Source of the DNA: an uncultured Acidimicrobiaceae bacterium
Lineage (GTDB): Bacteria; Actinomycetota; Acidimicrobiia; Acidimicrobiales; Palsa-688
DNA: 64,000 nt
Reading direction: 5' to 3'
Assembly (NCBI GenBank): GCA_963807395.1
Contig: CAWEBW010000017.1
Coordinates: 13,187-77,186 of the forward strand
Shown one piece after another: positions 2,561 through 53,649 of this stretch. The first letter of the stretch is position 1. Every line of letters begins with the position of its first letter. The position numbers and the translations under genes are program-made. A model generated the notes under the pieces. That model ran no database searches, was not told where the DNA came from, and saw only the letters and a program-made list of their open reading frames with translations.

Positions 2561-2976
2561 AGAAGCGGTCGGCGGACTGGCGCTCGGTCCTGGCGCCGAG
2601 CAGCAGGGCGCCGATCACGTCGGCCGCGAACTGGTTCTCTGCCTTGGTCACCGGCTAGTCGAGGTCGACGTGCCACTGACCGAGCCAGCGGTAGGTCTCG
2701 GCCCGGTGGCCCAAGCGATGGGCTGCCATGACCGGGGCGCGGCGCCAACGGGTGGGTCTTCGACTTCGCCTTCGTCGACGGCGAGGGACTTGCCCCCGGC
2801 CCGGCGAAGGTCGCGCTCGCGCGCGAAAGGCAGCGGGTGCGCTCACGTTCCATGCTCACGAGGCGGCGCAACGGAGTCCTCCGTGACAGTTCTTGTGACA
2901 CTTTCGGGCGGCGAGATGGCGCCGTCATCATAATCACCACCCCCGACCTGCCCATATCTAGCTAGCGAGCTAGCTA

Positions 2977-3020
2977 GCGCGCTCGAAGGGATTCGAACCC
3001 CCAACCTTCTGATCCGTAGT
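2977..3020 (-). repeat. tRNA-Arg(ACG) 3'-half fragment, copy A (att-like)
   Basis: The minus strand reads ACTACGGATCAGAAGGTTGGGGGTTCGAATCCCTTCGAGCGCGC. That is anticodon loop CUACGGA, T-arm GGTTCGAATCC and the 3' acceptor strand. No D-arm or 5' acceptor follows. Confidence 0.7.
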
Positions 3021-3313
3021 TATTAAGCTTTGTGCGTTGGGCAAACCTACACAGACGCTGGTCGTCGACGAGCGTAAGCTGTCCAGTTAGATGCTGTGAG
3101 GATGCCTGGCTATACCGGCTCGGCGCGCTGCCGACTTCCGCAGCCATCAAGTCGACAATCGCTCGTATCTTCGGCAGAACCGTCTAGCCGAACGCCACCC
3201 GCAGCCAATCACCTGTCCGAGAACAACGCGGCCGCATCGAGCCGGGCATGCCCCGGTATCGTCGGAAGGGAGCGCTGGCTAACCCAAGTGGCCTGTGGAC
3301 CGTTACCCGGTGA

Positions 3314-3757
3314 TCAGGCAGGGGAGCGACGCAAGCCGACGCCAGGCACGCGTACGTAGCCGTCGGGTACGCAGGCTTCCATTGCCTTTCTGATGTCCTC
3401 TGCATGCGCAGTGACGTCATCCAGGTCGACGTCAGAGAGGACCCGAGCGAACCCGGCCTCGTCGAGTAGCTCAGCAAGATGATCGCGTAGCTGGGAGACG
3501 AACCAGGTGAGAGGCTCTCCCCGCAGCCCCTGGTCGAAAGGCATCGGGTCACCGGTGGCGGGGATGTGGTAGTGGGGGCCCTCAATGAAGTCATCGAAGC
3601 GAAGCAGCTCGGCTATATCGCCGTCGACCTCCCCGAAGACGCGCAGAGTAGCCCCCGCCGGGGCTCGGAAGCTCGCCTCGAACCGCAGCCCTCCGCAGTC
3701 CACCACCTGTCGGTCCGTGGCCTCCGGATGCCGCGGAATCTGCTGGTCAGCCATCAC
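3314..3757 (-). CDS. Hypothetical protein (147 aa)
   Basis: A clean ORF with plausible globular composition. I do not recognise the family. Confidence 0.4.
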   Translation of the reverse strand: MMADQQIPRHPEATDRQVVDCGGLRFEASFRAPAGATLRVFGEVDGDIAELLRFDDFIEGPHYHIPATGDPMPFDQGLRGEPLTWFVSQLRDHLAELLDEAGFARVLSDVDLDDVTAHAEDIRKAMEACVPDGYVRVPGVGLRRSPA

Positions 3758-4231
3758 GCCCTCCCTTCACCGAGCGGTCGCATCGGCACGCGACCAAACT
3801 ATCGAGTATCGAAAAGATGCCCGTCCGTAAAGGCGGTGGGTCAGGTTTGGGCCACTAATGGTCTTTGAGGTCGGCAAAACGACCACATTGTCCCTGCTCC
3901 GGCGACCATTCGAACGAGTGCGCCATTTGCACTGAAAATGCTGAGGTCGGTGGTTCGATTCCAGCTGGCCCACTGACTGAAAAAGCCTGGCACCACAATT
4001 GCATCTCCTGCTCTGACGTAGATAGCTCTTCCGATCCATCCCCGTCCGAACTGACTTGACAACTGCGAAGTGCTGGCTGCGGTCTCGCAGCCCGGTCACG
4101 ACCCTAGGACCGCGGGTACGAAGACTTAGCCAAGCCGTGAAGATCGCGCCATTTTCAACTCAACTAAATAACGGCTAGCCGATTACGCCCTTCCGCAGAC
4201 CTAAAATTTCTGAACGGTGCCGGACGAAGGC

Positions 4232-5071
4232 TCATCCCTTCGTAGCCCCGGCGACTAGGCCGCTCACCAGGTGGCGCTGCACGGCCAGGAAGATCACGAC
4301 GACGGGTAATGAGACGAGGACCCCCCCGGCCAGAATGGTCCCGATCGGGAGGGTATAGAGGCTAAACAGATCCTGCAGGGCGAGCGGAACTGTCTTCACC
4401 GAGCTCGCCGTGAGCAGCGAGAGGGCGAAGAGGTACTCGCCCCAGGCGAGGGTGAACGTGAAAGCACCGACTGCGATGATGCTCGGGCGAAGAAGGGGCA
4501 TAACTATCCTACGGACGACGCCGACCCGGGAACAGCCGTCGACCATGGCTGACTCCTCGATCTCTGCCGGCAGGGCAAGCAGTGCCGAGCGCAGCATGTA
4601 AACGGAGACGGGCAGCCCGAGCGGCAAGTAGACAATGCCGAGGCCGACCAGGCTATTAGTGAGGTGCAAGCGCTGCATTGCTACGATGAGCGGGACGAGG
4701 ACGACGAGGCCTGGTATGGCCTGACCGGCGAGGATGAGCAACATTATGGGCCCTCGGCCCCGGAAGGAGAACCGGGCCAGGCCGTAGGCAGCCAAGGCGG
4801 CGAAGATCGTCGTGACGATGGCGACCACCGAGGCCACGATGACGCTGTTGCGGATCGCCCCGGTGAAGCCCTGGGCGAAGACGGCCCGGAAATTCGCCAA
4901 GGTGAATGTGTGCGGGAGGAACCCGCCCTCGTCGAGGTCGAGATCAGTCCGAACCGATCCCAGGTAGAGCCAGATCATCGGCAAGAGCACGACGAATACC
5001 GCCAGGACCTGCGCCAAGGGGATGAGCAGGCGAGCTTTCCCTGTCGGACCGAGGGGGGACCTTTGCCTCAT
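4232..5071 (-). CDS. Carbohydrate ABC transporter permease (MalG-like)
   Basis: A 279-aa polytopic membrane protein. It has a binding-protein-dependent transport EAA-type loop (EIEESAMVDGCSRVGVVRRIVMPLLRP). Confidence 0.85.
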   Translation of the reverse strand: MRQRSPLGPTGKARLLIPLAQVLAVFVVLLPMIWLYLGSVRTDLDLDEGGFLPHTFTLANFRAVFAQGFTGAIRNSVIVASVVAIVTTIFAALAAYGLARFSFRGRGPIMLLILAGQAIPGLVVLVPLIVAMQRLHLTNSLVGLGIVYLPLGLPVSVYMLRSALLALPAEIEESAMVDGCSRVGVVRRIVMPLLRPSIIAVGAFTFTLAWGEYLFALSLLTASSVKTVPLALQDLFSLYTLPIGTILAGGVLVSLPVVVIFLAVQRHLVSGLVAGATKG

Positions 5072-5088
5072 CGTCCATTCACCCTCGC

Positions 5089-6072
5089 CTAGCGCCCCTC
5101 TCGGCTGTTCACCCGGGTCAACGCCAGGACTGCACTGCTCACGAGGATGAGCAGGACGAACATGGACACCCCGATCGCAGCGGCGGCGCCCGGTGCCCCG
5201 TTAAGGAAGAACTCCCGGTAGATCATGACCCCGGTTAGCTCCGAAGACGTCCCCGGACCGCCCTGCGTGAGGAGCCAGACCAGGTCGAAGCTGTAGAAAG
5301 CGAGGACCCCGAGGACCACGGACATCACAATCATCGTGTTCTTCATGAGGGGGAGCGTGATGTAGCGGAACCGCTGGAGCGCGCGTGCTCCATCGACTTC
5401 GGCCGCGTCGTAGAGGCCGTCGTCGATGCTCCTCCGGTTGGCGAGAAGGGCGATGGTCATAAACGGCAGGCCCTTCCAGCCGCTGATCACGGTCAGTGTC
5501 GGGAGCGCCAGCTTCGTGCTTTCCAGCGGCGTTGCAGCCCCGACGATCCCGACGGCCTGCAGCAGCGAGTGCACCGGTCCTCCCGAGCCGAGCAAGTAGA
5601 GCCAGGAGTAAGAGACCACCACGAAGGGCGTGACCCACGGGAGCAGCAGCAGGCTCGTGGCCAGCCCCGACACGAGCGTCGGCCGGCTAAGCAACAGCGC
5701 CAGTGGAAGGCCGACGCCAACCTCGATGACCAGGGTTCCTGCTGTCCAGAACCAGGTGTGGCCGAGGTCCGACCAGAACTCGGAGCTGGCGAATATTGTC
5801 CGGTAGGCCCCGATGCCCTCGAAGTGTGCGGTCGTGCTCTGCAGGAACTGCCAGTTCGTCAATGACAGCCAGACCCCATAGACGGCCGGCGCCAACGCAA
5901 CTAAGACTACGACGAGCACAGCCGGACCAGTAAGGCCATAGGGGACGAGCGCCTTCGTGGTGCTTGGGGTCCACCAACCGGCGCGCCACCCACCCCGACG
6001 TGGCCGCGTGGCGCCAGCGGTGGTTTCCCGAGGGGGGATATCGCCGAGCGAAGCCGGCTCCGCCACTCTCAT
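5089..6072 (-). CDS. Sugar ABC transporter permease (MalF-like)
   Basis: A 327-aa membrane protein with the loop DDGLYDAAEVDGARALQRFRYITLPLM. It is adjacent to, and co-oriented with, the second permease. Confidence 0.85.
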   Translation of the reverse strand: MRVAEPASLGDIPPRETTAGATRPRRGGWRAGWWTPSTTKALVPYGLTGPAVLVVVLVALAPAVYGVWLSLTNWQFLQSTTAHFEGIGAYRTIFASSEFWSDLGHTWFWTAGTLVIEVGVGLPLALLLSRPTLVSGLATSLLLLPWVTPFVVVSYSWLYLLGSGGPVHSLLQAVGIVGAATPLESTKLALPTLTVISGWKGLPFMTIALLANRRSIDDGLYDAAEVDGARALQRFRYITLPLMKNTMIVMSVVLGVLAFYSFDLVWLLTQGGPGTSSELTGVMIYREFFLNGAPGAAAAIGVSMFVLLILVSSAVLALTRVNSREGR

Positions 6073-6180
6073 CTCCGAACCCCACCGTTCTCTGCAAGCG
6101 TTTTGCGGCTCAACGAGGGCCGCGCCGGACGCGGAGGAGTGGCGGCGTGCCGGCGCAGCCCCTGTGAGGTCATGAGTGTC

Positions 6181-7497
6181 CTATTTGCCAGTTGCCGTAT
6201 TTATGGCCTTGCAGAGGGCCTGGGTGGCGGCCGGTACGGTCTTCGTGCCGAGCGCAACCGACTGGACGGCGGTCTGGACCGTGTTGGTTTCCAGCGCTCC
6301 CATCTGAGGTATCTCCGGCGCCGGGTACTGGTAGGGGTAGGCGTCGCTCGCTACCTGCTTTGCGAACACGCCCAGGGCCCCGCTGTTCCAGGGCGCTCCC
6401 TTAGCGGCGGCGATGTTCGCAGGGATGAGGCCGGTCGCCTTTGCCAGCGCTACGTCGCCGCCGCCGCCGGTCCCGACGTACTCGGCGAACTCCTCAGCGG
6501 CGCTCTGGACGCCGCCGCTGGCCGCAGACTTCCAGACCACGAGCGGCCAGCCGCCGTCAAAGCCGAAGCGCCCGGCCGGCCCGGCCGGGATGGGGGCCAC
6601 CCCGAGCTTGCTAAAGAGCGACGGGTTGGTCGCCTTCAGCTCGTAGTAGAAGCTCGAGTTATCGAGGATCATGCCCGCCTGGTCGGCAGTGAAGATGGCC
6701 TCGAGCGTGGACTCTGGGTCGACCGCAGCGTCCGGGCTGTCGAGGCCGTCCTTGTAAAACGACGTGTATAGGGTAAGGGCCTTCATGAACTGCGGCGTGT
6801 CGAAACCGCAGGCCCCGTTGGGCTGAAAGTAGCGCGCACCGTACCCTAAGTAGACTGACATGAAGTTCTGGACGGTGTTGTAGACGTTGTTCGCCTCTGG
6901 GAGGACGATGGGTATCGAACTGGTCTTGGCCTTGATCATCTCGGCGTCTGTGAACATCTGGGTGAACGTCGAGGGCGGGCTCGTGATCCCGGCGGCCTTG
7001 AAGATGACCTTGTTGTAGATCACCCCCCGGGTCTCGTCCACCAGCGGCACGGCGTACCACTGGCCGTCGAGGTGGTAATAAAGTTTATCGCCGGGGGTTA
7101 TGTCGGCGGTATCGGTCAGCTTGAGCGGCAACAGTTCATGCTCGGCGACGAACTCGGCAACAATGTCATTGCCGAGCATCGAGACGTTGGGTAGGGAGCC
7201 GGTCGCGAGGGCGGTGGTCAACTTCTGGGCCTGTTCGGCCCAGGGCACTGTGGACATCTGGATCGTGATGCCGTGGTGCGAGGCCTCGAAGCTCGCAATG
7301 CTGGCCTTGAAGGCGTCGATGCTCGGAGTGTCCGTCTGGAACTCCCAGAAGGTCACAATCTGGTTTCCACTCGCGGAGGCGGCCGGGGCGGTGATGCCGC
7401 CCGTGACGCCGAGCAGCGTCGCAGCGGCTAGGCCGGCAGCCGGAACGTGCCCTGACCTTGTCCGTCTCGTTTTTCCGTGTGCTTTTGCGTTTCTCAT
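6181..7497 (-). CDS. ABC transporter extracellular solute-binding protein
   Basis: Start chosen at MRNAKAHGK (GGGAG upstream). A signal-like AAGLAAATLLGVTGG is followed by a sugar-SBP-like body. The gene ends with TAG. Confidence 0.85.
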   Translation of the reverse strand: MRNAKAHGKTRRTRSGHVPAAGLAAATLLGVTGGITAPAASASGNQIVTFWEFQTDTPSIDAFKASIASFEASHHGITIQMSTVPWAEQAQKLTTALATGSLPNVSMLGNDIVAEFVAEHELLPLKLTDTADITPGDKLYYHLDGQWYAVPLVDETRGVIYNKVIFKAAGITSPPSTFTQMFTDAEMIKAKTSSIPIVLPEANNVYNTVQNFMSVYLGYGARYFQPNGACGFDTPQFMKALTLYTSFYKDGLDSPDAAVDPESTLEAIFTADQAGMILDNSSFYYELKATNPSLFSKLGVAPIPAGPAGRFGFDGGWPLVVWKSAASGGVQSAAEEFAEYVGTGGGGDVALAKATGLIPANIAAAKGAPWNSGALGVFAKQVASDAYPYQYPAPEIPQMGALETNTVQTAVQSVALGTKTVPAATQALCKAINTATGK

Positions 7498-7639
7498 TCG
7501 GTTCTCCCTTTTTGTGTGCTGTGGTTTCCCTCGAGGGCCTCGGGGCGAAGGACACCGGCTCGGCGCTCGCCTTCGTCGGTTGTGTTGATATCTAATAGCC
7601 GGGTCCTTATTGATATCTAGTGGGGCGCATGCCGGCACC

Positions 7640-8527
7640 CTAGGTTGAGGAATTATGCTGCAGGACGTGGATCTGCGTCCTCTTTCCTTTATGTAGCAGC
7701 AATACCTTGATCAGGAGGCCGGCATCAAGAGCCGCGTTGCGCAGCACCTGTGCCGTGAACGACACAGACTCTGCGCTAGGCATCGTCGGCTTGTACTCGA
7801 GGCCGATACTTCCGGAGTAGCCGACACTTTCGAGCGATTCGAGGACTTCCCCCCACGGGACCTTCCCAGTCCCCGGTTCGTGCCGTCCAGGGTCGTCCGC
7901 CACCTGGACATGGGCAATGCGCGAGCTCAGCTTGGCGATTACGGCGGCTAGGTCCTCACCCATACCGTGTGAGTGGTAAATGTCGAGTAAAATCCCTAGA
8001 GCGGGGCTGCCGACCCCCTCTACGACTTCCAGTGCCGTCAGGGAACTTGTGAGCAACGTGCCTGGGTGGTCGACCTTGTCATTTAGGGGCTCGAGGGCGA
8101 TCTTGACGCCGTGGCCTCCGGCGATGGAGGCGGCGGCTTGCAGTGCCCTTGTCACGGCTTCCAGTTGTTCAGGGTCGGGCGGGCCGGGGACGAGCCGCGG
8201 GCCAGCGGTCACCACCACGATGGGGCTGCCGAGGCGGGCAGCGACCTCGGAGGACTCCTTGACGGCTACGAGCCAACGCTCATGAGCACTTCGGTCGGCG
8301 ATATCGGCCTGGGGGTCGACTACGATTGCTGACACCCCGAGGCGGTGGTGATGCAGGGCGGCTTCGAGGCGGTCGATGTCGCGTCGGCGCCAGTACCAGA
8401 ACTCCACCTGGTGCATGCCGCTCTCAGCGGCGGCAGCCACGCGCTGCTCGATGCCGTCGGGCTCGGCGAAGATCCACTCGAGGCAAGGCGAAAGCCGTTG
8501 GTCGATAGTCTGGGACGTACCCGTCAT
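7640..8527 (-). CDS. Sugar phosphate isomerase/epimerase, TIM barrel (hydroxypyruvate isomerase-like)
   Basis: Motifs KIALEPLN, LLDIYH and GSIGLEYKP are typical of the xylose-isomerase-like TIM barrel family. Confidence 0.7.
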   Translation of the reverse strand: MTGTSQTIDQRLSPCLEWIFAEPDGIEQRVAAAAESGMHQVEFWYWRRRDIDRLEAALHHHRLGVSAIVVDPQADIADRSAHERWLVAVKESSEVAARLGSPIVVVTAGPRLVPGPPDPEQLEAVTRALQAAASIAGGHGVKIALEPLNDKVDHPGTLLTSSLTALEVVEGVGSPALGILLDIYHSHGMGEDLAAVIAKLSSRIAHVQVADDPGRHEPGTGKVPWGEVLESLESVGYSGSIGLEYKPTMPSAESVSFTAQVLRNAALDAGLLIKVLLLHKGKRTQIHVLQHNSST

Positions 8528-8565
8528 GGTGACGATCCCTCCTTACGTTATTTGCAATGAAGCCG

Positions 8566-9622
8566 TCAGGGGCTTGGGTCATAAGACAAGACGCATTGCA
8601 CTACGTCATGGTCGCCTTCGTCTATTGTCGCGTACGCTTTTGCGGCTTCTTCGAACGGGAACTCATGGGTGATCAATGGTTCGAGTAACATGCCGTCGAG
8701 CAAGCTTGTCGCTAAAGCCTTTCGTCGGTCTAGCGGCCATAATGGCCCCAGTTCAGGGTTTATCCCTCCGACCTGAGAGGAGACGATGCGGGGACGGTTG
8801 TGGTGGAACTCACCGGCGAGGTTGACCGCTCCCAGGTCCCCGCTGTACCAGGACAGGACGACGACCTTGGCGCCGTAGCCAACTGTGCGGATAGCTTCGT
8901 TCAGGGCAGGGGCGGCACCTGAGACCTCTATTACGATATCGGCACCCCGGTCGTCAGTTAGTGAGCGGACCCGCTCTGCCACGCTCCCGCCCGAGGGGTC
9001 AATTACGACGTCGGCGCCAAAGCGTGTGGCGAGTTCACGGCGTTGTTCGACCGTGTCAACCGCGACGATTAGCGCCGGACCGCAGCGGCGGAGCAACTGG
9101 GTCACCAAGAGACCGATCACGCCGAGCCCGCTCACGACGACGACGTCGCCGAGGACCGGTCGAGCATCCAGCACCCCGTTCAGGGCCGTATTCAGGTTGG
9201 CAACGAAGACTCCCACCGCGAGGGTCTGCGAGGGCCGGCAGGCGGACGACCGCTGACCAATGTGGGGCGCTCTTGGTGGCATGGGGCGTATAAGTGTAAA
9301 CGAGGTCGCCGACTGACAACTTGGCGCTCGGTGGGACTGACTCCCCTATCTGAGTGATCTGGCCCACTGCGGCATAGCCGTAGGCAAGCGGGTACGACCA
9401 CTCAGCCTGGCTCGTCTCACGGAAGAGCCCGGTGGCGGCGTCTCGTTTGCTGTGCCACTGGGGAGCAGTGCCCCGGAAGACGTTCATCTCCGTGCCGGCG
9501 CTGATGCCTGAATAGAGGGTCTGAACTGTTACGTCCTCAGCACCCGCGTCTGGGAGGAGCTGGTCGCGGACTTCGACCTTTCGCGGTCCTACGAAAGTTA
9601 CCGTCCTTGTTTGCAAACTCAC
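8566..9622 (-). CDS. Zinc-type (MDR) alcohol/polyol dehydrogenase with an apparent frameshift near 9245-9262
   Basis: The N-terminal half (GTG start after GAGGGGGG; ...YSGISAGTE...) and the C-terminal half (VVVSGLGVIGLL Rossmann motif) lie in different frames of ORFs 9056..9820 and 8566..9282. Confidence 0.7.
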
Positions 9623-9693
9623 AGTGCCCCCCTCGGGCTCATTTGGTTTGTCATCTTGGGCGAAGGACGGCTCCTTCGCTCGGGCTCCCAGCT

Positions 9694-10752
9694 TTACGTC
9701 GCCGTAGCCAAGTCCTGAGCACGAATATTTGGCCCTAATGCGGCCGGCCCCGTCGTCGCTCGCAAGACCAAGCGTGTGCTCAGCTTTACGTGGTCTTCCA
9801 GTGGTCGCACGACAGCACAACGGAAAGCCGCACGCCCGAGATCGAGCATCGGGACTGCTACGGTGCTCAGGGGTGGCGCCAGCGCGGCAGCGTACGTGTC
9901 GTCAAAGCCAACAACAGAGATTGTCTCAGGGACTCGGATGTTGTGCTCGTACAGGACTTGCAGCACTCCGGCCGCCAATAAGTCGGAAGCAGCGAATATG
10001 GCTGTCGGCGTTACCTCGGCGGCCAAGATCTCCTCTGCATAGTGACGGCCCGGTGACAGGAAGTCTCCTTCTGTGGTCGAGTACTCGCCTAGTATCACCC
10101 GGCTCGGCAGTTCTGCTTCGTGGACCGCGTCCAGGTAGCCGTTCAAGCGCTCGGCTTCTACCGACGAACTGGCAGGTGAAGACTCGTCGAGCCGTTGTCC
10201 GATAAATGCGATGTTCCGGTGCCCGAGGAAGAGCAGGTGCTCGGTAGCCTCGCGGGCACCCGCGTAATTGTCGACGGTTACCGCGGCCGAAGGCGCCTCA
10301 GTGGGTCGTTCCACTTGAACGACTCGCAGCCCTGCGCTGGTCGCAAGGGCTACGTTCGCATAGTCCAGTGCGGTCGTGAAGATGACGGCGTCTACCCTGC
10401 GCCGCAATGCTGCCTGGACAGCCTCGCGCTCTAGCCTTGGAGAGTGCTCGGCGTTGTAAACGAGGACCTCGTAGCCGAGGCTGGTGGCTTCGCGTTGGAG
10501 GCCCCGGGCGACGTGGGAATAAAAGGGGTTCGGGAACAGCCCATGGAGGATGTGAGCCACCGTTGCAACCCGTTTGGTCCGCAGGCTCTGTGCTATCGCG
10601 TTGACGTGGTAGCCGGTCCTGTTGAGTACCGCCTGGACGAGTTCCCGAGTGTGGGGACTTACCTTAGGGTCGCCGCGAAGGACCCGCGTAACGGTGGCAG
10701 TCGAGACACCCGCGAGCGAGGCTACTTGCCGTAAGGTGAGCGAGTCTTTCAT
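9694..10752 (-). CDS. LacI family transcriptional regulator
   Basis: An N-terminal HTH (LRQVASLAGVSTATVTRVL) is followed by a periplasmic-binding-like sugar sensor domain. It sits upstream of, and co-oriented with, the sugar operon. Confidence 0.85.
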   Translation of the reverse strand: MKDSLTLRQVASLAGVSTATVTRVLRGDPKVSPHTRELVQAVLNRTGYHVNAIAQSLRTKRVATVAHILHGLFPNPFYSHVARGLQREATSLGYEVLVYNAEHSPRLEREAVQAALRRRVDAVIFTTALDYANVALATSAGLRVVQVERPTEAPSAAVTVDNYAGAREATEHLLFLGHRNIAFIGQRLDESSPASSSVEAERLNGYLDAVHEAELPSRVILGEYSTTEGDFLSPGRHYAEEILAAEVTPTAIFAASDLLAAGVLQVLYEHNIRVPETISVVGFDDTYAAALAPPLSTVAVPMLDLGRAAFRCAVVRPLEDHVKLSTRLVLRATTGPAALGPNIRAQDLATAT

Positions 10753-13503: not shown

Positions 13504-13606
13504 GTCAATCTCCCTTTGAATCGTGAACCCAGAATCGTCAACCTGGTTGTCCAAGAGTAGACAACCCGGTTGACCTTGTCAAGACGTCTGCTTTACGATC
13601 AGCTCC

Positions 13607-14795: not shown

Positions 14796-14844
14796 GTGGC
14801 GGCGTTGCCGCGGTTTGGAGGGGGACAGTTAGATCGTCGGAGAA

Positions 14845-46080: not shown

Positions 46081-46440
46081 TTACCTAAGTGGGCGGTTGC
46101 TGGCCGGGACGGCGACGGCGACTTCGTCGACGGCCGGGAAGGGGTGAGCGGGGTTGTAGTTGTTGGCCGTGCCCCAGGCGGCGGTCATATCGACCAGGAC
46201 ATGGTCCATCTCGTCCACGAACAGGCAACGCCAGCGCTGGCGGGGGTCGGCAGGGAGCGCCCCGCTGCTAGTTTGGCCGCCGGTCTGGTAGCCGAGCAGC
46301 ATCGGCCTGCCCTCCTTCCAGCCAAGGGCGTGGGGGCATAAGAGCCGCCGGCGGCCGTGGTAGGCGACGTGCACCGGGCGGCGCTCCCGGAGGGCACCTT
46401 CCAAGACGGCCCAGATGTCCGGCAACTTGGCCGCGGTCAT
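46081..46440 (-). CDS. IS-borne accessory protein (119 aa), possibly WYL/Sm-like
   Basis: It lies inside the IS boundaries and overlaps the transposase stop by ATGA. Copy 2 has a conserved counterpart. The pattern is VHVAYHGRRRLLCPHALGW...LLGYQTGG...QRWRCLFVDEMDHV. Confidence 0.5.
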   Translation of the reverse strand: MTAAKLPDIWAVLEGALRERRPVHVAYHGRRRLLCPHALGWKEGRPMLLGYQTGGQTSSGALPADPRQRWRCLFVDEMDHVLVDMTAAWGTANNYNPAHPFPAVDEVAVAVPASNRPLR

Positions 46441-48128
46441 AGCTTCCCCGCGGCGTAGGCGCCCAGGCCGAAAAGCTGGTAGAGGCGCTGTTGCGTGGCG
46501 TCCATCTCGGTGGTCACCCGCCGGGCTCGGGGCCGGCCCCGCTCTCCTTGGTAGAGCAGTACCGTCTCTTCGATGCCGGCCAGCGTGCCGAGCAGTTCGC
46601 GCACGCTCATGTGCATGCCGGCCCGCTCTGCTTCTCTCACCATGAGGCGGGCGGCCATCAGGGCCAGCACGCAGTAAAAGGCATGGACGCGGATCTTCTG
46701 GTCGGTCCAGTGGTACATGGGCGAAAAGGAGACCACGTTGGGGTCCTTCATCTGACGGAAGTCGCCCTCGGCCGACTCCTGGGAGCGGTACTCGGCCACG
46801 ATGGCCGCCGTCGGGGCCAGCTCGGGGCCCTTGTCGCTGAACAGGGCCCGCTTGCCGAACAGCTCCTCTTCCAGGCGGGCCCGGGCGGCTTGGCTCGTGC
46901 GGTAGCGCAGCCGAAGCTCGGGGGGCTCCTCGCCGGTGAGGGTGGCAGAGAGCACCCGGGACAGCCAGCGGGGCTTCAAGATATTGGCAACCTCGGCCTC
47001 GACGTTTTGTTTTTCCTTCCTCGTCTTGCCCCGGGCCAGACGGGCCTGGACCGCGCTGAGCTGGCCGCGGGCCTTGGCCAGGGTCTGGTCGAAGCCGGCG
47101 GACTGCTTTTCGTGCAGGACCTCGGAATGGGTCACCACGATGCGGCGGGCCTTGCCGAACACGGCCTTTTCGGCCTCGAAGGCGCTGAGGCCCGAGAAGC
47201 CTTCCACTGGCTGGTAGGTGGCTTTGGGCACGGCCAGCAGCTCTGGGTGGTCAGAGGGCGGGAGCGAGCCGACGAAATGGAACGGCAGGCCGTCCAATAG
47301 CTCGTAATTGTCGTCTGAGTTCTGCCCGGCGTCGAAGACGAGCGTGAGCTTGCCCACGTCGGCCGGGATGGCCCCGAAACGCCGGGCCAGTTCTCCCACC
47401 ATCGCCGGGAACTGGGTGACGTCGGGGCGGTTGCCGGGGTAGGCGTGGGAGACCAAAGGGATGCCACCGTCGGTGGACACCACCAGGCCGAGGCCGACTA
47501 AACGCAAGTCGGAGCGCTTCTGTTTGGAGTGGCCCCGCTGGGCGATCGGGGCACGGTCGTTCGCCGAGGCGATCCAGGTGGCGAAGTTGGTCATGTCCAG
47601 CACGAGCCCGGACAGCTCGACGCCAAAAGCTTCGACCATGTGGGCGACGATGCGCCGCTCGGCCTCAGCCAACTGGTCTTCGCCGAGCAGGTCCATCGCC
47701 TCCCAGAACCGCCGGTGGTCGAGCGCCCCAGCCGCCAGGTGCACCCAGCGGTCGGCGGCGGTCTTGGCCCACCAGTCCGAAAAGGCGAGCTTGGAGCAGG
47801 GGTCGCAGGCCCTATTGAGCGCTGCCAGGGAGATATAGGTCCCCACCGACGCGCCCGCGTCCGCCCGTCGTGGCCCCACCACCTCGTCGATTATCTCGGC
47901 CACCTTCAGCCGCTCCAGGACCGACCACACCGCCGCTATGTCCCCGAAGGCCAAGTGGCGGGTACGGTCCGGTTCGCCCGGGCCGGTCTCGGCCAAACGG
48001 GCGACGATCTCTTCAGCGGGGCCGAGGTAGCGCTGCGAGACGATACGGGGCTTGCCGCCTACCCGGGCGGACTCGACCAGGTAGTAGTAAGTCTTGTTGC
48101 CTTGCCGTTTGCCGACGATCGATGCCAC
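46437..48128 (-). CDS. IS1634 family transposase
   Basis: A 563-aa ORF beginning MASIVGKRQGNKTYYYLVESARVGGKPRIVSQRYLG, which I recognise as the IS1634/IS4-type N-terminus. DDE-type blocks follow. Confidence 0.8.
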   Translation of the reverse strand: MASIVGKRQGNKTYYYLVESARVGGKPRIVSQRYLGPAEEIVARLAETGPGEPDRTRHLAFGDIAAVWSVLERLKVAEIIDEVVGPRRADAGASVGTYISLAALNRACDPCSKLAFSDWWAKTAADRWVHLAAGALDHRRFWEAMDLLGEDQLAEAERRIVAHMVEAFGVELSGLVLDMTNFATWIASANDRAPIAQRGHSKQKRSDLRLVGLGLVVSTDGGIPLVSHAYPGNRPDVTQFPAMVGELARRFGAIPADVGKLTLVFDAGQNSDDNYELLDGLPFHFVGSLPPSDHPELLAVPKATYQPVEGFSGLSAFEAEKAVFGKARRIVVTHSEVLHEKQSAGFDQTLAKARGQLSAVQARLARGKTRKEKQNVEAEVANILKPRWLSRVLSATLTGEEPPELRLRYRTSQAARARLEEELFGKRALFSDKGPELAPTAAIVAEYRSQESAEGDFRQMKDPNVVSFSPMYHWTDQKIRVHAFYCVLALMAARLMVREAERAGMHMSVRELLGTLAGIEETVLLYQGERGRPRARRVTTEMDATQQRLYQLFGLGAYAAGKL

Positions 48129-49838
48129 ATTCTAGGTAATACACGACTAGCCAACGAATAGCAAGCATCTGAGCAGGACAAACGCGCTGGTAGTGGCCTA
48201 TTTTTGAAAAATCTTCGCGGAGCGTGGCGCGGGCGCTAGATCAGCTAGCCCGGAAAGTCCCGCTAGGGCGTCCCAGACGCTCCCGGCCAAGCGGGTCCGG
48301 TCGATGTAGACCTGGCTGACCAAGGCGGACGAGTCGAATTCCTCCGAACCGGCCGCCAGTTGCGAGCTGTCGAGGGGCGTCTCCTGTCGATGACGGTACA
48401 GAGGGCGCTCCATGGGCAGGCCGACGGTCACGACGGTGTCGTCCATTTCTGTGGCGAGCGCCGGGTCACGGACGTCCCGCACACGCAACGCCTTTGACTC
48501 GATGGCCCGGACAAGGTCGAACACCCGCTTGTTCTCGAGCCACAGCTGGTCGTCGAGGAAGCGACGAAGCTGGTCGGAAAGCAGCCGGACCGTGGCTTGA
48601 GTGCGTTCGCAGGCATCGATCCAGTCGAAGTGGATGTGGGCCAGCCGTGCTTCCTTGTCACCGATATCGTCGATTGCCTGCAGCCGTTCGAGCAGGTCGC
48701 TCAGCTCGGCCTGACGGTCGTGCGAGAGGAGGAAGTCGTAGAACGCTTGGAAGCTGCGGCCCTGATCGGACTCGGCGATGCTGTTGCGGCTCCCGACGGC
48801 GTTGTCGAGGAGCGCGCCCTTGGAGCCGGTCCAGCCCGCGATTTGTTGGCGTAGATTGCGGTCCAGCCGGCGGAAGTTCTCCTCGACCTGACGAAAGTCA
48901 GCCAGGAGCTCTCGAGCCGTGCGCTAGAACTGCTGGTAGCGGTCCCGCTGGCCCACGGGGTCGAGGCGGACGAAATCTCCTCGCTCGGCGCGGGCGATCT
49001 CCGCGTCCAACTCGGCTCGGCGCCGACGCAGCTCGGCCAGGCGTCGCTCGGGGTCCTCCTCGGCGCCGAACACCATTTGGCGCAGCAGGTCGAAGATCGT
49101 GTTCAACCTTGACTCCGTGCCGATGAACTCACGGCTGCGGAGGTCGGAAACCCACATCAGCGCCTTCTCGACCGCCGGAGAGAGGTCGTAACTAGCTTCG
49201 TCTGATCCCTGTGGGTAGAACTTGCGCAGCCAGCCCCGCTCCGGCGAGGCCCAGTCGTCGAGGTACTCGACGGCCGTCTTCGGGAAGCGGTCCTCACCCA
49301 AGCGCTGGTTGAGCGAGTAGAGCTCGTCGTCGAGCTCGCTGGTAAGCTGTCGTGCTGGCAGGTCTGCCACATTGCGGTCTAAGAACACCCGACCAAGGAA
49401 CGACATCACCAGTGCCACGTTGGCCGAGCGCAGGAGAGACCATGCCGGATGGTTGGTTCGAAAGTGGTCGATTTCGTCGTAATTCATTTGGCGCCCGGGG
49501 GTGTCGGCTCAGCGTGGGGATGGCGAAACACTCCTCTTGACATCTAACGTCTCTAGTGGGTCCACCACCTGGGTGATGGGCACGCGTAGGGTGCGCCGAG
49601 TCGGTCCTTTCTGGCTCGCCTTCCTTCTTGACCGGAGCGGGCTTGCTCGACTCCTTATGTTTGATCGTCGGATCAGACGGGATCTCCTCGGCGCACGTGC
49701 ATTCCTGTTCAGGAACTCGGCGGCCGGCCAGTGTGCCGGACCCCTGTTTCGAAGATGTCTGGGAACTACCCTACGGAGCTTGTGCGGTGCCGCCAGTGGG
49801 GCCGGAGGAATGGTTGGCCCACGAGAAGGAGGTTGTAA

Positions 49839-51237
49839 TTGAAGGTCCGTTTGGGCATTGACATAGCCTGCCGGGCGCACCACCAAGCGAGCCTGGCCGA
49901 CGAGGCGGGCGAGTTCATGTGGTCGGGCTGGCGGTTCCATACAAGCTCGGCCGAGCTCGAAGCACTTTGGGCAAAGGTCCCCGCCGGCTCAGAAGTAACT
50001 GTCGTCATGGAGCCCACCCGCAATGCCTGGGTGCCGTTGGCTGCTTGGCTAAAGGCGCGCGGTGCCACGGTCGTCCTCGTCCCCCCGAGCGCTCCGCTGA
50101 CTTGAGGGACTACTACGCCAAGCACACCAAGACCGACCGCCTCGACAGCCGGATGCTGGCACGGCTGCCCTTGCTCCACCCCGAAGGCCTCGAGCCGCTC
50201 GAGGGGCTCGGCCCGGCGGAAAGTTTCAAAAGGGCGGTCCGGCGCCGCTGGGGCCTGGTGCAACGGCGCCAATCGTGCTGCCAGCGCCTTGACGCCATGG
50301 TGGAAATGCTCGGCCCGGCCTATGCCGAGGCCCTGGGGACCGGTGCCTACAGCGAGACCGCCCTGGTCGTCCTAGAGCGCTACGGCGACCCCCGGGCCTT
50401 GCGCCACCTCGGCCGCCAACGGCTGGCGAGTGTCCTGCGACGCCTGAGCCGAGGGCACTGGCGCGAAGCCAAAGCTGACGAACTGTTGGCCGCCGCCGAC
50501 GAGGCGATGAAGTTGTGGGCGGCGGGTGGGCTCGATTTCGCCGCTCTAGCGGCCGACATCGCTGCCGAGGTCCGGGTCGTGCATGCCTTAGGGGAGGAGA
50601 TCAGCCGCCTGGACGCCCGGGTCGAGGACCTCTACCGGCAAGCTGCCCGGAGGGCATTGTCCTTTCGGCCCCGGGCCTAGGAGTGACCCTATCGGCGGCC
50701 ATCTTGGGCCGCTTTGGTGATTTCGACCGCTTCGCCAACCTGGCCGGGGTGCGCTCGTTCACCGGGCTGGTGCCCAAGGTGGACCAGTCCGGCAACACCA
50801 ACGGGCACGGAGGCCCGACCAAGGCCGGTGACCCAGGCCTGCGTTTGGTGCTGTTCCTGGCCGCCGACCACGCCCGCCGAGCCGACCCCCAACTTGCGGC
50901 CAAGTACCACCGTCTTGTTGTCGAAGAGGGCAAGCACCACGACTCTGCTCTTTGCCACCTGGCCGCCACGCTCGCTACAAGGATCGCAGCGTGCTGGCGG
51001 GCCAAAGTGCCTTACGCCTTGCGCGACGTGGACGGCCGGCTAATCACAGAGGCCGAAGGCCGGGCCATTGTGGCTGAGCGCTACAAGATCCCCGACGAGG
51101 TCCGCCAAGCCCGTCGCAGGGCTAACCGGGCTAAACAGCTGAAGGGGCGGACGAGCCGGCGCAGTCAGAAGTCGACCGGGGCCGCTCCAGCATCCGGCCC
51201 GTCCCCTTCTCACGCTAACGGCCATGTGGCAGCCTGA
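49839..51237 (+). CDS. IS110 family transposase with two apparent frameshifts (the C7 run at about 50090, and about 50650)
   Basis: LGIDIACRAHH...VVMEPTRNAWVPLAAWL...ADLRDYYAKHTKTDRLDSRMLARL, then PGLGVTLSAAILGRFGDFDRF...VPKVDQSGN. The protein can be followed across three frames. Confidence 0.8.
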
Positions 51238-51589
51238 GACCGGCCAGAGGCAGTCTGGTCCCCCGTCGCGTAACGGCTCCGTAACGGCTAACTGCGGGGC
51301 GTGTGAGGCACCGCTGCCCCCGGGCCGCTCAGACCGCCGCTGGTGCAGTGACGGCTGCCGTCAAGCTGGCCACCGCCGGCGCCATGCCAGCTCGCTAGAG
51401 CCGCCTTCCCTCCCGCCTCTCCGCCCCCGCCGGCCGGCGACGGTGTACCTGTGCCCGTCTTGCGACGCGCGTTACCTGGGGATCCAGAGGTGCCCCGAGT
51501 GCAACCTGTTCTGCCGGTCGATCGGTCCCGGCGGCTACTGCCCAGCCTGCGACGAGCCTGTCGCTTACCAGGAGCTGACCGCTGACTGA
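51224..51589 (+). CDS. Cys-rich zinc-ribbon protein
   Basis: CGACEAPLPPGRSDRRWCSDGCRQAGHRRRH plus CPSCDARY...CPECNLFC...CPACDEP. The start is uncertain. Confidence 0.4.
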   Translation: MWQPETGQRQSGPPSRNGSVTANCGACEAPLPPGRSDRRWCSDGCRQAGHRRRHASSLEPPSLPPLRPRRPATVYLCPSCDARYLGIQRCPECNLFCRSIGPGGYCPACDEPVAYQELTAD

Positions 51590-51934
51590 CGCCGTCGTCT
51601 TCGGACAAAAATCCCCTTCTGAAGACTTGACTTCCGTTAGGAACTCAATAGGAGTGAGGTGTGACGCTAAACGTGGACCCGGCGGCACGTCTTTCGTATC
51701 AACTGTTCTGCGGCCAGGTTGAGCCGCCCAGGTCCATGCTTACGGCGTCCCCTCTCTCGTCGTCAGAGAGGCCCCGCTGCCGCGAAGGATAGACGTCAGC
51801 CAGACGCGCCGACCTAAGCACTGCCTCGCCCGGGACTCGGCACGTGGTCGCTGAGGCCCCGCACGTCCAGACTGTTCAATGTTTGGGCGAGCAGGTGCAG
51901 GTCTCGGCAAAGGGTGGTCGTGTGGCGGTAGGTT

Positions 51935-51967
51935 GCCGTCTAGACGGCTAGACGGCGGCCGTCTAGT
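51935..51967. promoter_or_regulatory. Nested palindromes upstream of hicA (candidate operator)
   Basis: In GCCGTCTAGACGGCTAGACGGCGGCCGTCTAG, CCGTCTAGACGG is a perfect 12-bp palindrome. TAGACGGC-G-GCCGTCTA is a second one that shares the half-site. Confidence 0.4.
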
Positions 51968-52004
51968 AGAGTGGTGGAACGACCTTCAGACAGCTGGAAC
52001 GCTT

Positions 52005-52175
52005 ATGTTGCGACTCGGTTGCGTGGAGGTCCGCCAGAGCGGCTCGCACCTCATCGTGCGGTGTGGGTCATGCCAGACGGTCGTGCCCAGGCACGCAGGC
52101 GATGTCCGCCCTGGGACCCTGAGGAGTATTGAGCGGGACCTAGAGCCCTGCCTCGGGAAAGGATGGCTCCGGTGA
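52005..52175 (+). CDS. hicA: HicA-like mRNA interferase toxin (start uncertain)
   Basis: VRQSGSHLIVR...TVVPRHAGDVRPGTLRSIERDL matches the HicA core (GSH...vP.H...l..gtl..I). Confidence 0.6.
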   Translation: MLRLGCVEVRQSGSHLIVRCGSCQTVVPRHAGDVRPGTLRSIERDLEPCLGKGWLR

Positions 52176-52554
52176 AGAGGCTGACAGCGGTGTTCCAGAG
52201 AGATGACGAGGGTTTCTGGTTGGTAGAGTCGTCGAAGAACCCCGCGTCCACACGTACGGACGCACCCTGCCAAAAGCACGTGAACACATCGCTGATGCGG
52301 CCGCGCTTTGGTTTGAGCTGGATCCGGACGACGTGGACATCGTTGAAGACATCCGCCTCCCAGGACCGGTGAGGGCTCGGCTCGACCGAGCGCGCCGGGA
52401 GCGTGCGAAAGCGCAAGCCGCGCAGGAGACCGCAGCTGGCGCCACTCGCGATGCAGCCCGGGCTTTAGTAAACGAAGGGCACTTGAGCGTCCGCGACGCT
52501 GCTCAGGTTTTGGGTCTTTCGCACCAACGCGTCCAGCAGCTCCTCGCCAGCTAG
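52163..52554 (+). CDS. hicB: HicB-like antitoxin with a C-terminal HTH and an apparent frameshift near 52240 (C4 run)
   Basis: KRLTAVFQRDDEGFWLVE, then after shifting frame RVHTYGRTLPKAREHIADAAALWFELDPDDV, then LSVRDAAQVLGLSHQRVQQLL. Confidence 0.6.
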
Positions 52555-52852
52555 CCATTTTCGCAACCTGGTCCTGGTGGTGTCGATTGGCCACCAACTG
52601 GCCATGTCGTCAGCGAAGACCGAGAACGTCTTGCCCAAGGAGGCCCCGCGGTGACCGAATGCCGGGCAGGTGTTGCCCTCTGGGAGATGGTCATGTTCTC
52701 CCGGGGGAGGACTCCTCCGCTTAGATGGTCCCTCAGCGCTGTGCAGAACCTCCAAGCTGACCCTGCCAGGCAAAACAGCCGATGGAAGGGGAGATTGTTT
52801 GGGCTCACTCAGGAAGGGATAGCAAGAGATTTAGTCCTTGACCTGCGGTTTT

Positions 52853-52897
52853 GCGCGCTCGAAGGGATTCGAACCCCCAACCTTCTGATCCGTAGTC
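52853..52897 (-). repeat. tRNA-Arg(ACG) 3'-half fragment, copy D (att-like)
   Basis: The exact 44-nt core plus 1 nt. The right flank does not fold as a D-arm or 5' acceptor. It does contain GTCGNN motifs phased at 10 bp (52909/52919 and 52969/52979). Confidence 0.7.
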
Positions 52898-53649
52898 CGA
52901 CTCCGGGTGTCGATCGATGTCGCAGGAGGGCGCTAACCTGCGGGAATACTCGACTGTAGTCTATCGATGTCGGCGAGTGTCGAGGGTCTTGGCTGCCAAC
53001 TTGGCTGCCACTCCGGCGACATCTGGGAGACCGGCTCTCCTTGGTCCCGAGGATCTGACTCAGGGTCAGATGGTTGAAGGCAGTTGCCGTTTGGGCTCGT
53101 CATTATTTAGCCGTGGTCAGTAATGGTCGCTACCGCCAACCAGCGCGACACCCCGTCGTCGCTCGTAGGACGGGGCCTCAGCGAGCTCGAACATGGTCCT
53201 GATCGTCAGTCAAACCGCCTCTATCGCCGTGGGCCTCGTCGACCTTGTCGGGTACGACCCGCTGTTAGTGGCCGCCGCCATTGTGATCTCAGTCCCCGCG
53301 GTAGCGCGAGTCACACGACCGCCCGCCGTCGTGCCCGCCGCTGCCCGGCCTTGAAAAGGCGGCTCATGTGGCCTTCAGTGCCTCCCGGCGGCGCGTTGTC
53401 GCAGGTCAGAGGTGGTGTGCGTCCTCCGGCGACCGACCGCGATCGGCGGCGTCCGCGGGATGGACGCGGGATGGAATTGGACCTCCAGTTTCGGCTCTTC
53501 TACGACAGGCGCCAGCTGGCCTGGTGCTGGGCAACGAGCCAGGGAGCGATGTGAGCACCGCTGGGCTTGACAACTTCGCTACAAGTGATTCGCGTTCCCG
53601 TTAATGGGGCCCGAAAAGAGGTTCCCTCGCTCGTCTTCAGAGGCGCCAG

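Follow-up and report, generated by a model that had tools for sequence, protein, structure and literature searches.

The window, by which we mean the whole 64,000-nt stretch of DNA analysed here, is best explained as the distal and older portion of a tandem array of serial integrations at tRNA-Arg(ACG), now left as integrase-less islands (probability about 0.85). In this model, a single tRNA-Arg(ACG) gene on an Acidimicrobiia chromosome would have received at least five integrative elements in turn (E_0, of which a remnant is left, E_I, E_II, E_III and E_IV), each by a tyrosine-integrase crossover in the anticodon loop. Each incoming element would bring a new 3' half and so keep the tRNA intact, and the earlier 3' half would be displaced downstream (to the left here) and stay as a direct repeat. 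To the right of the window one would expect the intact tRNA together with the youngest element. Later, integrase genes would have been lost, IS elements gained and split genes accumulated, and the islands would be immobile at present. Serial accretion at one tRNA-Arg locus was the core of the original prediction, and it is supported by four related contigs with the same array, three of which carry an intact tRNA at the predicted tRNA-5' end. The mechanism is already known, and it is a real but ordinary route of island build-up. Its significance here is that tRNA-Arg(ACG) serves as a recurrent landing pad in a poorly studied soil lineage (uncultured Acidimicrobiaceae, represented mainly by MAGs), where the piled-up islands bring defence systems, toxin-antitoxin (TA) modules, accessory metabolism and conjugative remnants.

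The tRNA halves and the integrase trace

The 44-nt core of the repeat is found exactly at 2977-3020 and 52853-52896 (chance expectation 0 in the 64-kb window). Copy B was not found at up to 3 mismatches because of a 4-nt duplication (gatccATCCgtagt) in its anticodon loop. A profile search of the window returned copies A, B, C and D as the complete set, with no copy inside the segments. The extents below were obtained by alignment to the intact tRNA of a relative (L052).

2977..3020, minus strand: copy A, tRNA-Arg(ACG) 3' half from position 31 to the 3' end, exact
31143..31193, minus strand: copy B, ATCC duplication in the anticodon loop, 3 nt further into the anticodon stem (..GTAGTCAG)
40167..40210, minus strand: copy C, one mismatch to the 44-mer (A>G in the variable loop)
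52853..52897, minus strand: copy D, exact, 45 nt

All four copies lie on the same strand and span tRNA position 31 to the 3' end, and the cargo between them is unrelated. Copies A and C end after GTAGT, D one nucleotide and B three nucleotides later; the four copies, like at least 20 in relatives, lose identity to the L052 tRNA in this register (+0 to 3 nt). No contiguous run-on into the D-arm or the 5' acceptor strand was found in copies A-D, and neither ARAGORN nor Rfam detected a tRNA gene in the 64-kb window. The four same-orientation halves were correctly taken for att-site remnants, not tRNA genes. They give exact island boundaries for annotating the window. The anticodon loop is a classic sublocation of integrase crossover in tRNA genes, and the repeats of all four copies end there; in the model the crossover would have taken place in this loop. 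Williams is reported to have described an anticodon-loop class of tRNA integration sites in 2002, and the block duplicated here likewise begins in the anticodon loop and ends with the tRNA 3' end. Temperate phages such as corynephage beta also use tRNA-Arg(ACG). Unlike these phages, the segments here are no prophages, and the ORFs scanned included no phage structural genes.

The heptamer GACCTGC lies on the tRNA-3' side of every copy, as predicted.

2945-2951, plus strand: GACCTGC 3' of copy A
31088-31094, plus strand: GACCTGC 3' of copy B
40152-40158, plus strand: GACCTGC 3' of copy C
52840-52846, plus strand: GACCTGC 3' of copy D

Its distances from the tRNA 3' end are 25, 48, 8 and 6 nt for A, B, C and D, so that the spacing of 10-45 bp given originally is slightly off. 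On the plus strand of the 64 kb the heptamer has 12 matches, 4 of them at the copies.

The sole integrase-like sequence in the window is a single ORF.

2372..2728, plus strand: stop-to-stop ORF with the C-terminal ~70 aa of a tyrosine integrase (homologous part ~2375-2617), reading toward copy A

This part includes LGHSS..T..Y, and the ORF is a relic of another element (E_0) on the left side. No integrase or integrase remnant was found inside E_I-E_IV, which bears out the statement that the window holds no intact integrase. Integrases beside att sites are present in the relatives L052, L032 and L055.

Arms and cargo of the segments

The right arms beside A and C are of a family-1 type, and those beside B and D carry GTCGNN repeats.

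3021..3100, plus strand: E_I family-1 right arm, with M1 (TTAGATGCT) at 3087-3095 and a degenerate M2 position
31194..31262, plus strand: E_II right arm, with three GTCGCA at 10-nt spacing (31213, 31223, 31233) and GTCGTT at 31257
40002..40037, plus strand: E_II left arm, with three GTCGCA (40002, 40022, 40032)
40211..40290, plus strand: E_III family-1 right arm, with M2 (GCTGTGCA) at 40226-40233 and M1 (TTAGATGGT) at 40277-40285
52668..52852, plus strand: E_III family-1 left arm, with M1 at 52721-52729, M2 at 52738-52745 and the GACCTGC of copy D; 91-94% identical to L055:844 and L086
52898..53036, plus strand: E_IV right arm, with GTCGNN pairs 52909/52919 and 52969/52979, then cttggctgccaacttggctgcc; 92-93% identical to L025 and L047

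The right flanks of A and C are homologous, as had been noticed from the sequence (125 nt at 83% identity including the core, ~75% over the 80 nt beyond it). They represent a conserved 76-80-nt att arm with at least 14 copies in at least 5 MAGs and in metagenome contigs, and its invariant blocks are kept though paralogous arms are only ~75% identical. M1 and M2 stand at fixed positions in the family-1 right arm and in the E_III left arm, and none of the four plus-strand matches to M1 in the window is more than 210 nt away from a copy. E_III carries both motifs in both arms. In E_I they occur in the right arm only, with M2 degenerate, and are absent from the left arm. M1 and M2 are candidate integrase binding sites, and together with the family-1 arm they provide a sequence tag by which such islands, with their cargo, can be picked out of metagenomes. 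The GTCGNN repeats phased at 10 bp to the right of B and D were confirmed, and a further occurrence was found left of C (40022/40032). The left flanks of B and D have the short motif GATTTA..GACCTGC in common, as claimed; no extended homology between them was found. The proposed division into two alternating families (I/III and II/IV) holds for the right arms, where a cousin of E_II has a D-type arm. The left arms qualify it: that of E_I is without family-1 motifs, and B and D agree only in the short motif.

The cargo differs by segment, in agreement with the original prediction: accessory metabolism in E_I, a primase-helicase in E_II, Wadjet in E_III, and toxin-antitoxin genes with a conjugative tail in E_IV.

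3021..31142 (28.1 kb), no strand: E_I, accessory metabolism and surface genes (DUF7700, sugar ABC operon with LacI, APH kinases, MarR, ABC-2 exporter, MFS fragments, AsnC, BNR-repeat protein, NMO fragment)
31194..40166 (9.0 kb), no strand: E_II, PIN/DUF5615 gene 31450-31806, queD/queE/folE fragments 33349-34987, IS256-family transposase 35541-36869, AEP primase fused to SF2 helicase 37559-39964
40211..52852 (12.6 kb), no strand: E_III, Wadjet with jetD 40444-41751, split jetC 41748-45172, jetB 45194-45778 and jetA fragments 48198-49487 interrupted by an IS 46081-48230; frameshifted IS110 49919-51237
52898..64000, no strand: E_IV, running off the window, PIN-like/DUF433 genes 53650-54757, M29 peptidase 55837-57678, second IS copy 57759-59910, TraG C-terminal fragment 60764-61507, DUF4913 61149-61892

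E_I and E_III have att sites on both sides and, IS transposases aside, no recombination or transfer genes inside. E_I is regarded as an element because of the repeats at its ends and a single family-1 arm; the cargo resembles ordinary accessory chromosome. The sugar operon of E_I also occurs in two other MAGs at 67-79% nucleotide identity, in different contexts free of the tRNA. The different contexts indicate that there is no conserved synteny and do not by themselves prove mobility. In E_III the jetA (DUF3375), jetB (DUF4194), jetC (SMC-like ATPase) and jetD (DUF3322 and JetD_C) families are all present. With jetA in fragments and jetC split at 42341-42344, the system is probably non-functional. 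The E_IV TraG fragment and DUF4913, the only parts found there of a conjugative set of coupling protein, T4SS genes and relaxase, are the tail of a conjugative element. The relative L114 has a full TraG (1023 aa) and TrbL, and its similarity to the window covers only 60784-62034.

The array in relatives and alternative explanations

Arrays of the 44-mer were found in four related Acidimicrobiaceae MAG contigs. In three of them an intact tRNA-Arg(ACG) is present at the tRNA-5' extreme, with every partial copy on its 3' side and in the orientation of the tRNA. On CAWJSS010000002.1 the intact tRNA is at 89.9 kb and the partial copies are at ~16.8, 21.8 and 37.0 kb; the corresponding positions are 448.5 kb against 471.8 and 474.9 kb on CAVVMN010000009.1, and 835.5 kb against 848.5 and 860.4 kb on CAVVRE010000037.1. 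It is from these relatives alone that we infer an intact tRNA adjoining the array of the window. Junction arms occur in different combinations and beside different cargo between genomes, so the segments are probably not one conserved syntenic block; the arms of junction D, for example, recur at 87-95% identity in three relatives with different neighbours. Tyrosine integrases stand beside several copies in relatives, and in L052 and L032 intact integrases adjoin the intact tRNA. In L055 a 5-kb element (GNAT, AEP primase, helicase, integrase) lies between two copies with its integrase (4481-5701) intact. Its helicase region is 71-74% identical to E_II at the nucleotide level, and the intact 5-kb cousin of E_II has a D-type right arm, in which cttggctgccaa(c/g)ttggctgcc comes after the GTCGNN repeats. 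Other Acidimicrobiales encode intact 304-306-aa alpha integrase relatives, up to 100% identical to the L058 fragment, ~110 nt downstream of tRNA-Arg genes. Viruses use the site independently: two viral contigs (38 and 37 kb, IMG/VR) have the same tRNA stretch at both ends and an integrase beside one end. Small elements of 1.25-1.7 kb with an intact tRNA on one side and a half copy on the other are seen on metagenome contigs. Among relatives, integrase decay does not increase cleanly the farther a copy lies from the tRNA, and some apparent frameshifts may be sequencing errors in MAG assemblies.

It is possible, if unlikely, that the integrase-less segments, at least E_III, are still mobile as CIME-like cassettes mobilised in cis or in trans, which would make the locus an exchange platform for defence and TA cargo and not a graveyard. 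Equally tentative is the suggestion that an alpha-type integrase, with its gene at another place in the array or genome, recognises their family-1 arms; intact alpha integrases do adjoin tRNA-Arg in relatives, but the cognate integrase is absent from the window. The wide retention of the right arm would fit continued mobility, as would M1 and M2 in both arms of E_III, but arm conservation could also stem from recent common ancestry, and E_III is full of IS insertions and split genes. In favour of this reading, unrelated cargo adjoins arms of 92-96% identity, whose similarity breaks off exactly after M1. Left-arm similarity between relatives, however, runs ~50 nt past M1, so M1 is not a general breakpoint. 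Most family-1 elements were seen without an integrase, with cargo of Wadjet, AbiEii-like, STAND/LuxR, MazF, HEPN/MNT and DUF433/PIN genes, which favours the cassette reading; on the other side, the insertion in copy B lies in the crossover region and no excision junctions were observed.

A more elaborate version, rather improbable in our view, is that small Xer-like 304-306-aa alpha integrases beside the tRNA capture and shuffle integrase-less defence, TA and metabolic cassettes. A conserved junction module of ~260 bp (left arm, tRNA half, right arm) would belong to each cassette, and the right arm would end in M1 as a decoy of the tRNA half-site and a possible second recombination or binding site. 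The locus would then work more in the manner of an integron than as a line of defunct islands.

An origin by segmental duplication or gene conversion around the tRNA, or as an assembly artefact, is very improbable. The copies are nearly identical with diverged flanks and the relatives are metagenome-assembled, as such an origin might predict, but defined arm modules aside the sequence beside the copies is unrelated between copies, the architecture appears independently in four MAG contigs and several metagenome contigs (including the 1.25-1.7-kb elements), and the identity of every copy ends at the anticodon loop. That the 44-mer is a SINE/MITE-like repeat, derived from a tRNA and dispersed without relation to island boundaries, as several identical copies within one 64-kb window and short conserved sequence on both sides of some copies might suggest, is scarcely credible and largely refuted, because the exact copies of each related MAG are confined to a single stretch of 25-75 kb 3' of its sole intact tRNA-Arg(ACG) in uniform orientation, the flanks are several unrelated arm types, integrases stand beside copies, and the window has only four copies, all outside the segments.

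Comparison with known systems

Serial accretion at tRNA-Arg(ACG) has close parallels. CIMEs are cis-mobilisable elements derived from ICEs, for example in the ICESt1/ICESt3-related arrays of Streptococcus thermophilus. As in the model proposed here, successive integrations at one att site give arrays separated by att repeats, and older members lose recombination genes and stay as att-flanked integrase-less islands. The streptococcal elements target the fda gene, whereas the array here targets a tRNA gene; their mobilisation was shown experimentally, whereas this array is known from sequence alone, and its host belongs to an uncultured Acidimicrobiia lineage. Tandem accretion of integrative elements has been reviewed (PMC5704250).

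E_III resembles defence islands at integration hotspots in its canonical jetA-D order, and the family-1 elements of relatives carry further defence genes, but unlike an intact Wadjet operon the E_III copy is disrupted.

Prochlorococcus tycheposons are tyrosine-integrase elements that insert at tRNA genes and leave partial tRNAs. In the tRNA-linked islands of Prochlorococcus newcomers push older elements inward, fragmented integrases and extra partial tRNAs accompany them, and many tycheposons combine a primase/helicase replication module with cargo (bioRxiv 10.1101/2020.12.28.424599). By type of module, E_II and its 5-kb cousin in L055 may be compared with them. They differ in phylum, tRNA target and cargo (here Wadjet, TA modules and conjugative remnants), and the window is without an integrase. 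E_II lacks the tyrosine or large serine recombinase of the tycheposon feature set, and the L055 cousin has recombinase, replication module and tRNA site.

tRNA-Arg(ACG) 3' halves in the window

The 44-mer GCGCGCTCGAAGGGATTCGAACCCCCAACCTTCTGATCCGTAGT occurs exactly at 2977 and 52853 and with one mismatch at 40167 of the window, whose G+C content is about 64%; by chance none would be expected. The copy at 31143 carries a 4-nt duplication (gatccATCCgtagt) and was missed by a search allowing three mismatches; BLAST aligned it to an intact tRNA of a relative as positions 1-39 plus 36-47. A profile of repeat plus arm run over the 64 kb with nhmmer matched these four copies only and revealed no further degenerate tRNA halves or arms inside the segments, and neither ARAGORN nor Rfam found a tRNA gene in the window. 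The original prediction of four same-strand tRNA-Arg(ACG) 3' halves that are not genes was thus confirmed. The halves, the segments that they delimit and their contents are as follows.

tRNA halves, segments (E_0 to E_IV) and segment cargo, in window positions
2372-2728, plus strand: integrase remnant of E_0, the element left of copy A
2977, minus strand: tRNA half, copy A
3021-31142: E_I; DUF7700, sugar ABC operon with LacI, ADH and a xylose-isomerase-like gene, APH-type kinases, hydrolase, MarR, ABC-2 exporter, MFS fragments, AsnC, SDR fragment, BNR-repeat protein, DUF4232, NMO fragment
31143, minus strand: tRNA half, copy B
31194-40166: E_II; PIN/DUF5615 gene, queD/queE/folE fragments, IS256-family transposase, AEP primase fused to SF2 helicase
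40167, minus strand: tRNA half, copy C
40211-52852: E_III; jetD, jetC split at 42341-42344, jetB, fragmented jetA, frameshifted IS110
52853, minus strand: tRNA half, copy D
From 52898: E_IV; PIN-like and DUF433 genes, MFS fragment, M29 peptidase, second diverged IS copy, S9 peptidase fragment, TraG C-terminal fragment, DUF4913

The alignment reference for the copies was an intact tRNA-Arg(ACG) of 75 nt from a relative, locus L052 (sense strand GCGCTCGTAGCTCAATGGATTAGAGCATCTGACTACGGATCAGAAGGTTGGGGGTTCGAATCCCTTCGAGCGCGC). The copies take in the final base of the 5' strand of the anticodon stem, the anticodon loop CUACGGA and the 3' stem strand; the remainder comprises the variable loop, T arm and 3' acceptor strand, all on the minus strand. 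Identity to the L052 tRNA ends after GTAGT in copies A and C and extends by one more base in D and by three in B. The ATCC duplication in the anticodon loop of copy B (31178-31185) lies exactly within the inferred strand-exchange region and may be a scar of aberrant recombination.

The best-supported account of the array, to which we assign a probability of about 0.85, is serial insertion in the anticodon loop by integrases. Each incoming element would carry a new tRNA 3' half and displace the previous one, and integrase loss and invasion by IS elements would have followed.

Flanks and arms of the segments

The right flanks of copies A and C are homologous as predicted (125 nt at 83%) and define a family of right arms, family 1. 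Stretches of 76-80 nt of this arm also follow tRNA halves in L030, L039, L055 (at 5828), L056, L064 and L070 and in the metagenome contigs L086, L094 and L097, and a more distant form is present in L076, L100 and L110. Its conservation ends sharply at TTAGATGGTGT. Two short motifs, M2 (G[CT]TGTGC[AT]) and M1 (T[TC]AGATG[GC]T), keep fixed places in the arm, 20 and 71 nt, respectively, after ..GATCC. The left arm of E_III has an M1/M2 pair in the same orientation at 52721 and 52738, some 132 and 115 nt ahead of the tRNA half, and such pairs are also present in L025, L055 (at 844), L086, L097 and L100; in L115 an equivalent pair occupies the interval from the tRNA to the start codon of an intact integrase of the alpha group, one of those found in relatives. 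The tRNA sequence just past the crossover (TCAGATGCT) is nearly that of M1, and all four plus-strand M1 matches in the window fall within 210 nt of a tRNA half. Judging from sequence, M1 and M2 are putative binding sites for the recombinase or an accessory protein in an attP of about 260 bp. Both arms are present in E_III; E_I combines the right arm with a left side devoid of M1 and M2. The left flanks of A, B and C had no extended relatives among the compared loci.

Right of copies B and D, GTCGNN repeats with 10-nt spacing are common to both, as originally described; copy C also has GTCGNN repeats, on its left. A 5-kb element of L055 with E_II-like cargo has a D-like right arm, in which GTCGNN repeats are followed by cttggctgccaagttggctgcc, supporting the earlier assignment of E_II and E_IV to one family.

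In family 1, right arms with 92-96% identity lead into unrelated cargo, similarity breaking off exactly after M1. This would fit a less probable variant, compatible with serial insertion, in which family-1 segments devoid of an integrase are still moved in trans. Against it, the window itself has no integrase, no excision junction was seen, and left-arm similarity continues past M1. M1 as a general recombination breakpoint was rejected: it fits the right arm, but similarity of the left arms extends about 50 nt beyond it.

The heptamer GACCTGC lies 25, 48, 8 and 6 nt past the tRNA 3' end of copies A, B, C and D (at 2945, 31088, 40152 and 52840), which accounts for 4 of its 12 plus-strand matches in the window; the flank details of the original prediction held in substance, and its GACCTGC distances needed this small correction. 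GACCTGC (GCAGGTC on the tRNA strand) also precedes the 5' end of intact tRNA-Arg(ACG) genes by 8-10 nt (L052, L060, L044, L061 and L115), so that the tRNA gene stands between direct repeats of the heptamer. The E_III-type left arm and the tRNA upstream region of L052 have 14 nt in common (AAACCGCAGGTCAA). In copies A and B, runs of CTAG/TAGA tetranucleotides separate GACCTGC from the tRNA 3' end (2952-2976 and 31095-31142), and a short CTAGCTAGCTA run occupies the same place beside the intact tRNA of L058. Copy B has a 13-nt partial junction duplicate, CTAGCGCGCTCGA, at 31101-31113.

The family-1 arm (3021-3100 and 40211-40290) resembles a tRNA sequence split by about 64 nt, this spacer being followed by a degenerate copy of the anticodon-stem/D-arm segment (TTAGATGGTGTGA; TCAGATGCTCTACCAAC in L076 and L100). 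The left arm of the intact 5-kb L055 element contains, at 5748-5810, fossil remains of the tRNA's 5' two-thirds (ACCTTCTGATCGAAGTCAGAGC...CTCGACGAGCGC), about 20 nt from a functional-looking half copy. The family-1 arm, alone or with the tRNA half, was rejected as a structured RNA, RNAalifold giving weak energies and essentially no compensatory changes on either strand. An Rfam match to epsC RNA across tRNA half and arm (2989-3097, plus strand) was below threshold (17.6 bits against a gathering score of 42, E 0.98) and is probably due to chance. A small ORF through the arm into the tRNA half was rejected as well: one frame is open in 8/8 copies, yet its substitutions have no codon periodicity (14/14/13).

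Arrays and integrases in relatives

A search of the species-representative genome set located the exact 44-mer in 46 stretches. For the most part these are lone intact tRNA-Arg(ACG) genes from Actinomycetaceae and other Actinomycetota. Several contigs of uncultured Acidimicrobiaceae MAGs have two or three exact 44-mers each, and their layout was read from contig coordinates and ARAGORN. CAWJSS010000002.1 has partial copies at about 16.8, 21.8 and 37.0 kb and the intact tRNA at 89.9 kb, CAVVMN010000009.1 has partial copies at 471.8 and 474.9 kb and the intact tRNA at 448.5 kb, and CAVVRE010000037.1 has partial copies at 848.5 and 860.4 kb and the intact tRNA at 835.5 kb. In a fourth, CAWGNA010000004.1, the contig end falls inside the array. 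In all relatives with an intact tRNA, the partial copies lie 3' of the gene and in its orientation, as expected from integration into the 3' part of the tRNA, which displaces the old 3' half as the element supplies a new one. By analogy, the intact tRNA of this array should lie right of position 64000. L055 (1-903) is 95% identical to window 52011-52912, and the D junction recurs in L025 and L047 at 87-93%; on these identities the source organism is close to the array-bearing MAGs. A 44-mer of Acidimicrobiia type is also present in contigs binned as Acidobacteriaceae and Verrucomicrobiae (L041 and L062), likely through mis-binning or transfer; the left arms of L041 and L032 have 40 identical nt in common.

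That the 44-mer is a dispersed tRNA-derived repeat, named originally as a refuting possibility, was not borne out and is excluded by the clustering and uniform orientation of the copies in relatives. Duplication or an assembly artefact is excluded by the unrelated flanks of the copies and by the independent recurrence of the arrangement in contigs of relatives and metagenomes.

In relatives, integrases adjoin many tRNA halves. An iterative HMM built from six-frame ORFs of the window and 70 loci had a single match in the window, ORF 2372-2728 (plus strand), which aligns with just the final ~70 positions of the profile and includes RLGHSSTSVTQNVYQH; neither this HMM nor tblastn with intact alpha integrases (E<=100) found a further integrase in the window. 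The prediction that no intact integrase is present therefore holds. Lying left of copy A and reading toward it, the remnant belongs to a further element, E_0, as had been suspected. Intact integrases adjoin the intact tRNA in L052 (575-1852) and L032 (3620-4654), and L055 has one at 4481-5701 (Pfam PF00589); that of L070 is split over two frames and those of L047 and L039 are truncated. Decay rising with distance from the tRNA was rejected as a rule, since the L060 integrase is degenerate though beside the intact tRNA and the distal one of L055 is intact.

The integrases of relatives form at least three groups. The alpha group (L058, L039, L060 and L025, with L032 at about 50% identity) is part of a large recombinase family, 304-306 aa in length and Xer-like in domain architecture. 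At E<=1e-20 a database search returned 449 relatives, and it also gave one intact protein 100% identical to the L058 fragment. In 3/3 contexts looked up (L115-L117, Acidimicrobiales), the 304-306-aa integrase gene starts about 110 nt downstream of a tRNA-Arg (ACG in two, TCT in one) and reads away from it. These proteins are element integrases rather than housekeeping Xer proteins; the sources annotate the family as XerD. Two viral contigs of 38 and 37 kb, with the tRNA stretch at both ends and an integrase adjoining one end, provide independent support for integration at this stretch.

The window array has the same architecture as tandem accretions of integrative elements, its segments that of CIMEs (integrase-less att-flanked relics), and it matches the tRNA-linked tycheposon islands of Prochlorococcus, in which older elements are pushed inward by new arrivals and partial tRNAs and fragmented integrases are left (10.1101/2020.12.28.424599). 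It is of a known kind in an under-studied lineage, and its mechanism is not new. Having no integrase, the window segments do not qualify as autonomous elements and are thus classed as relics or possible mobilisable cassettes. The array is useful for delimiting islands and mining defence cargo.

Cargo of the segments

Family-1 elements of relatives are mostly devoid of an integrase and carry AbiEii-like/GNAT, STAND/LuxR, MazF, DUF433/PIN or HEPN/MNT genes; two of them, between intact tRNA and half copy, are only 1.25-1.7 kb. In CAWJSS, a compact element of 5 kb flanked by two tRNA halves is the cousin of E_II; it encodes GNAT, AEP primase, helicase and an intact integrase, and E_II has therefore lost its own integrase. 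The 7-deazaguanine pathway fragments of E_II (33349-34987; queD-like, radical-SAM queE-like and GTP cyclohydrolase I) look fused or truncated and are adjoined by the IS256-family insertion.

Two IS copies about 80% identical to each other lie at 46081-48230, inside jetA of E_III, and at 57759-59910 in E_IV. Each has a small WYL-domain ORF and a DDE transposase of 563-565 aa (563 aa in jetA). Split genes are numerous in the window and may be products of real decay or partly of assembly error. For the DUF4913 protein of E_IV, the best homologue is 90% identical, and its contig matches the window at 60784-62034 only; in the relative, a set of conjugative genes, among them TrbL and a TraG of 1023 aa, ends at this stretch, which is 93% identical.

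The LacI-ADH-sugar ABC operon of E_I (4226-10741), whose ADH is frameshifted (9197-9216), is syntenic with two Acidimicrobiia MAG contigs, L119 and L120 (67-79% nt identity). There the operon has other neighbours on both flanks, and tRNA halves are absent within 10 kb of it; their PAS-GGDEF gene is no orthologue of the PAS protein found left of copy A. The comparison does not place E_I in a conserved chromosomal block and is uninformative about mobility. Overlapping ORFs near the right end of E_I (28391-29305, plus strand; 28616-29254, minus strand) contain about 35 tandem copies of a 9-nt unit (28632-28949), probably encoding a repetitive surface or low-complexity protein.
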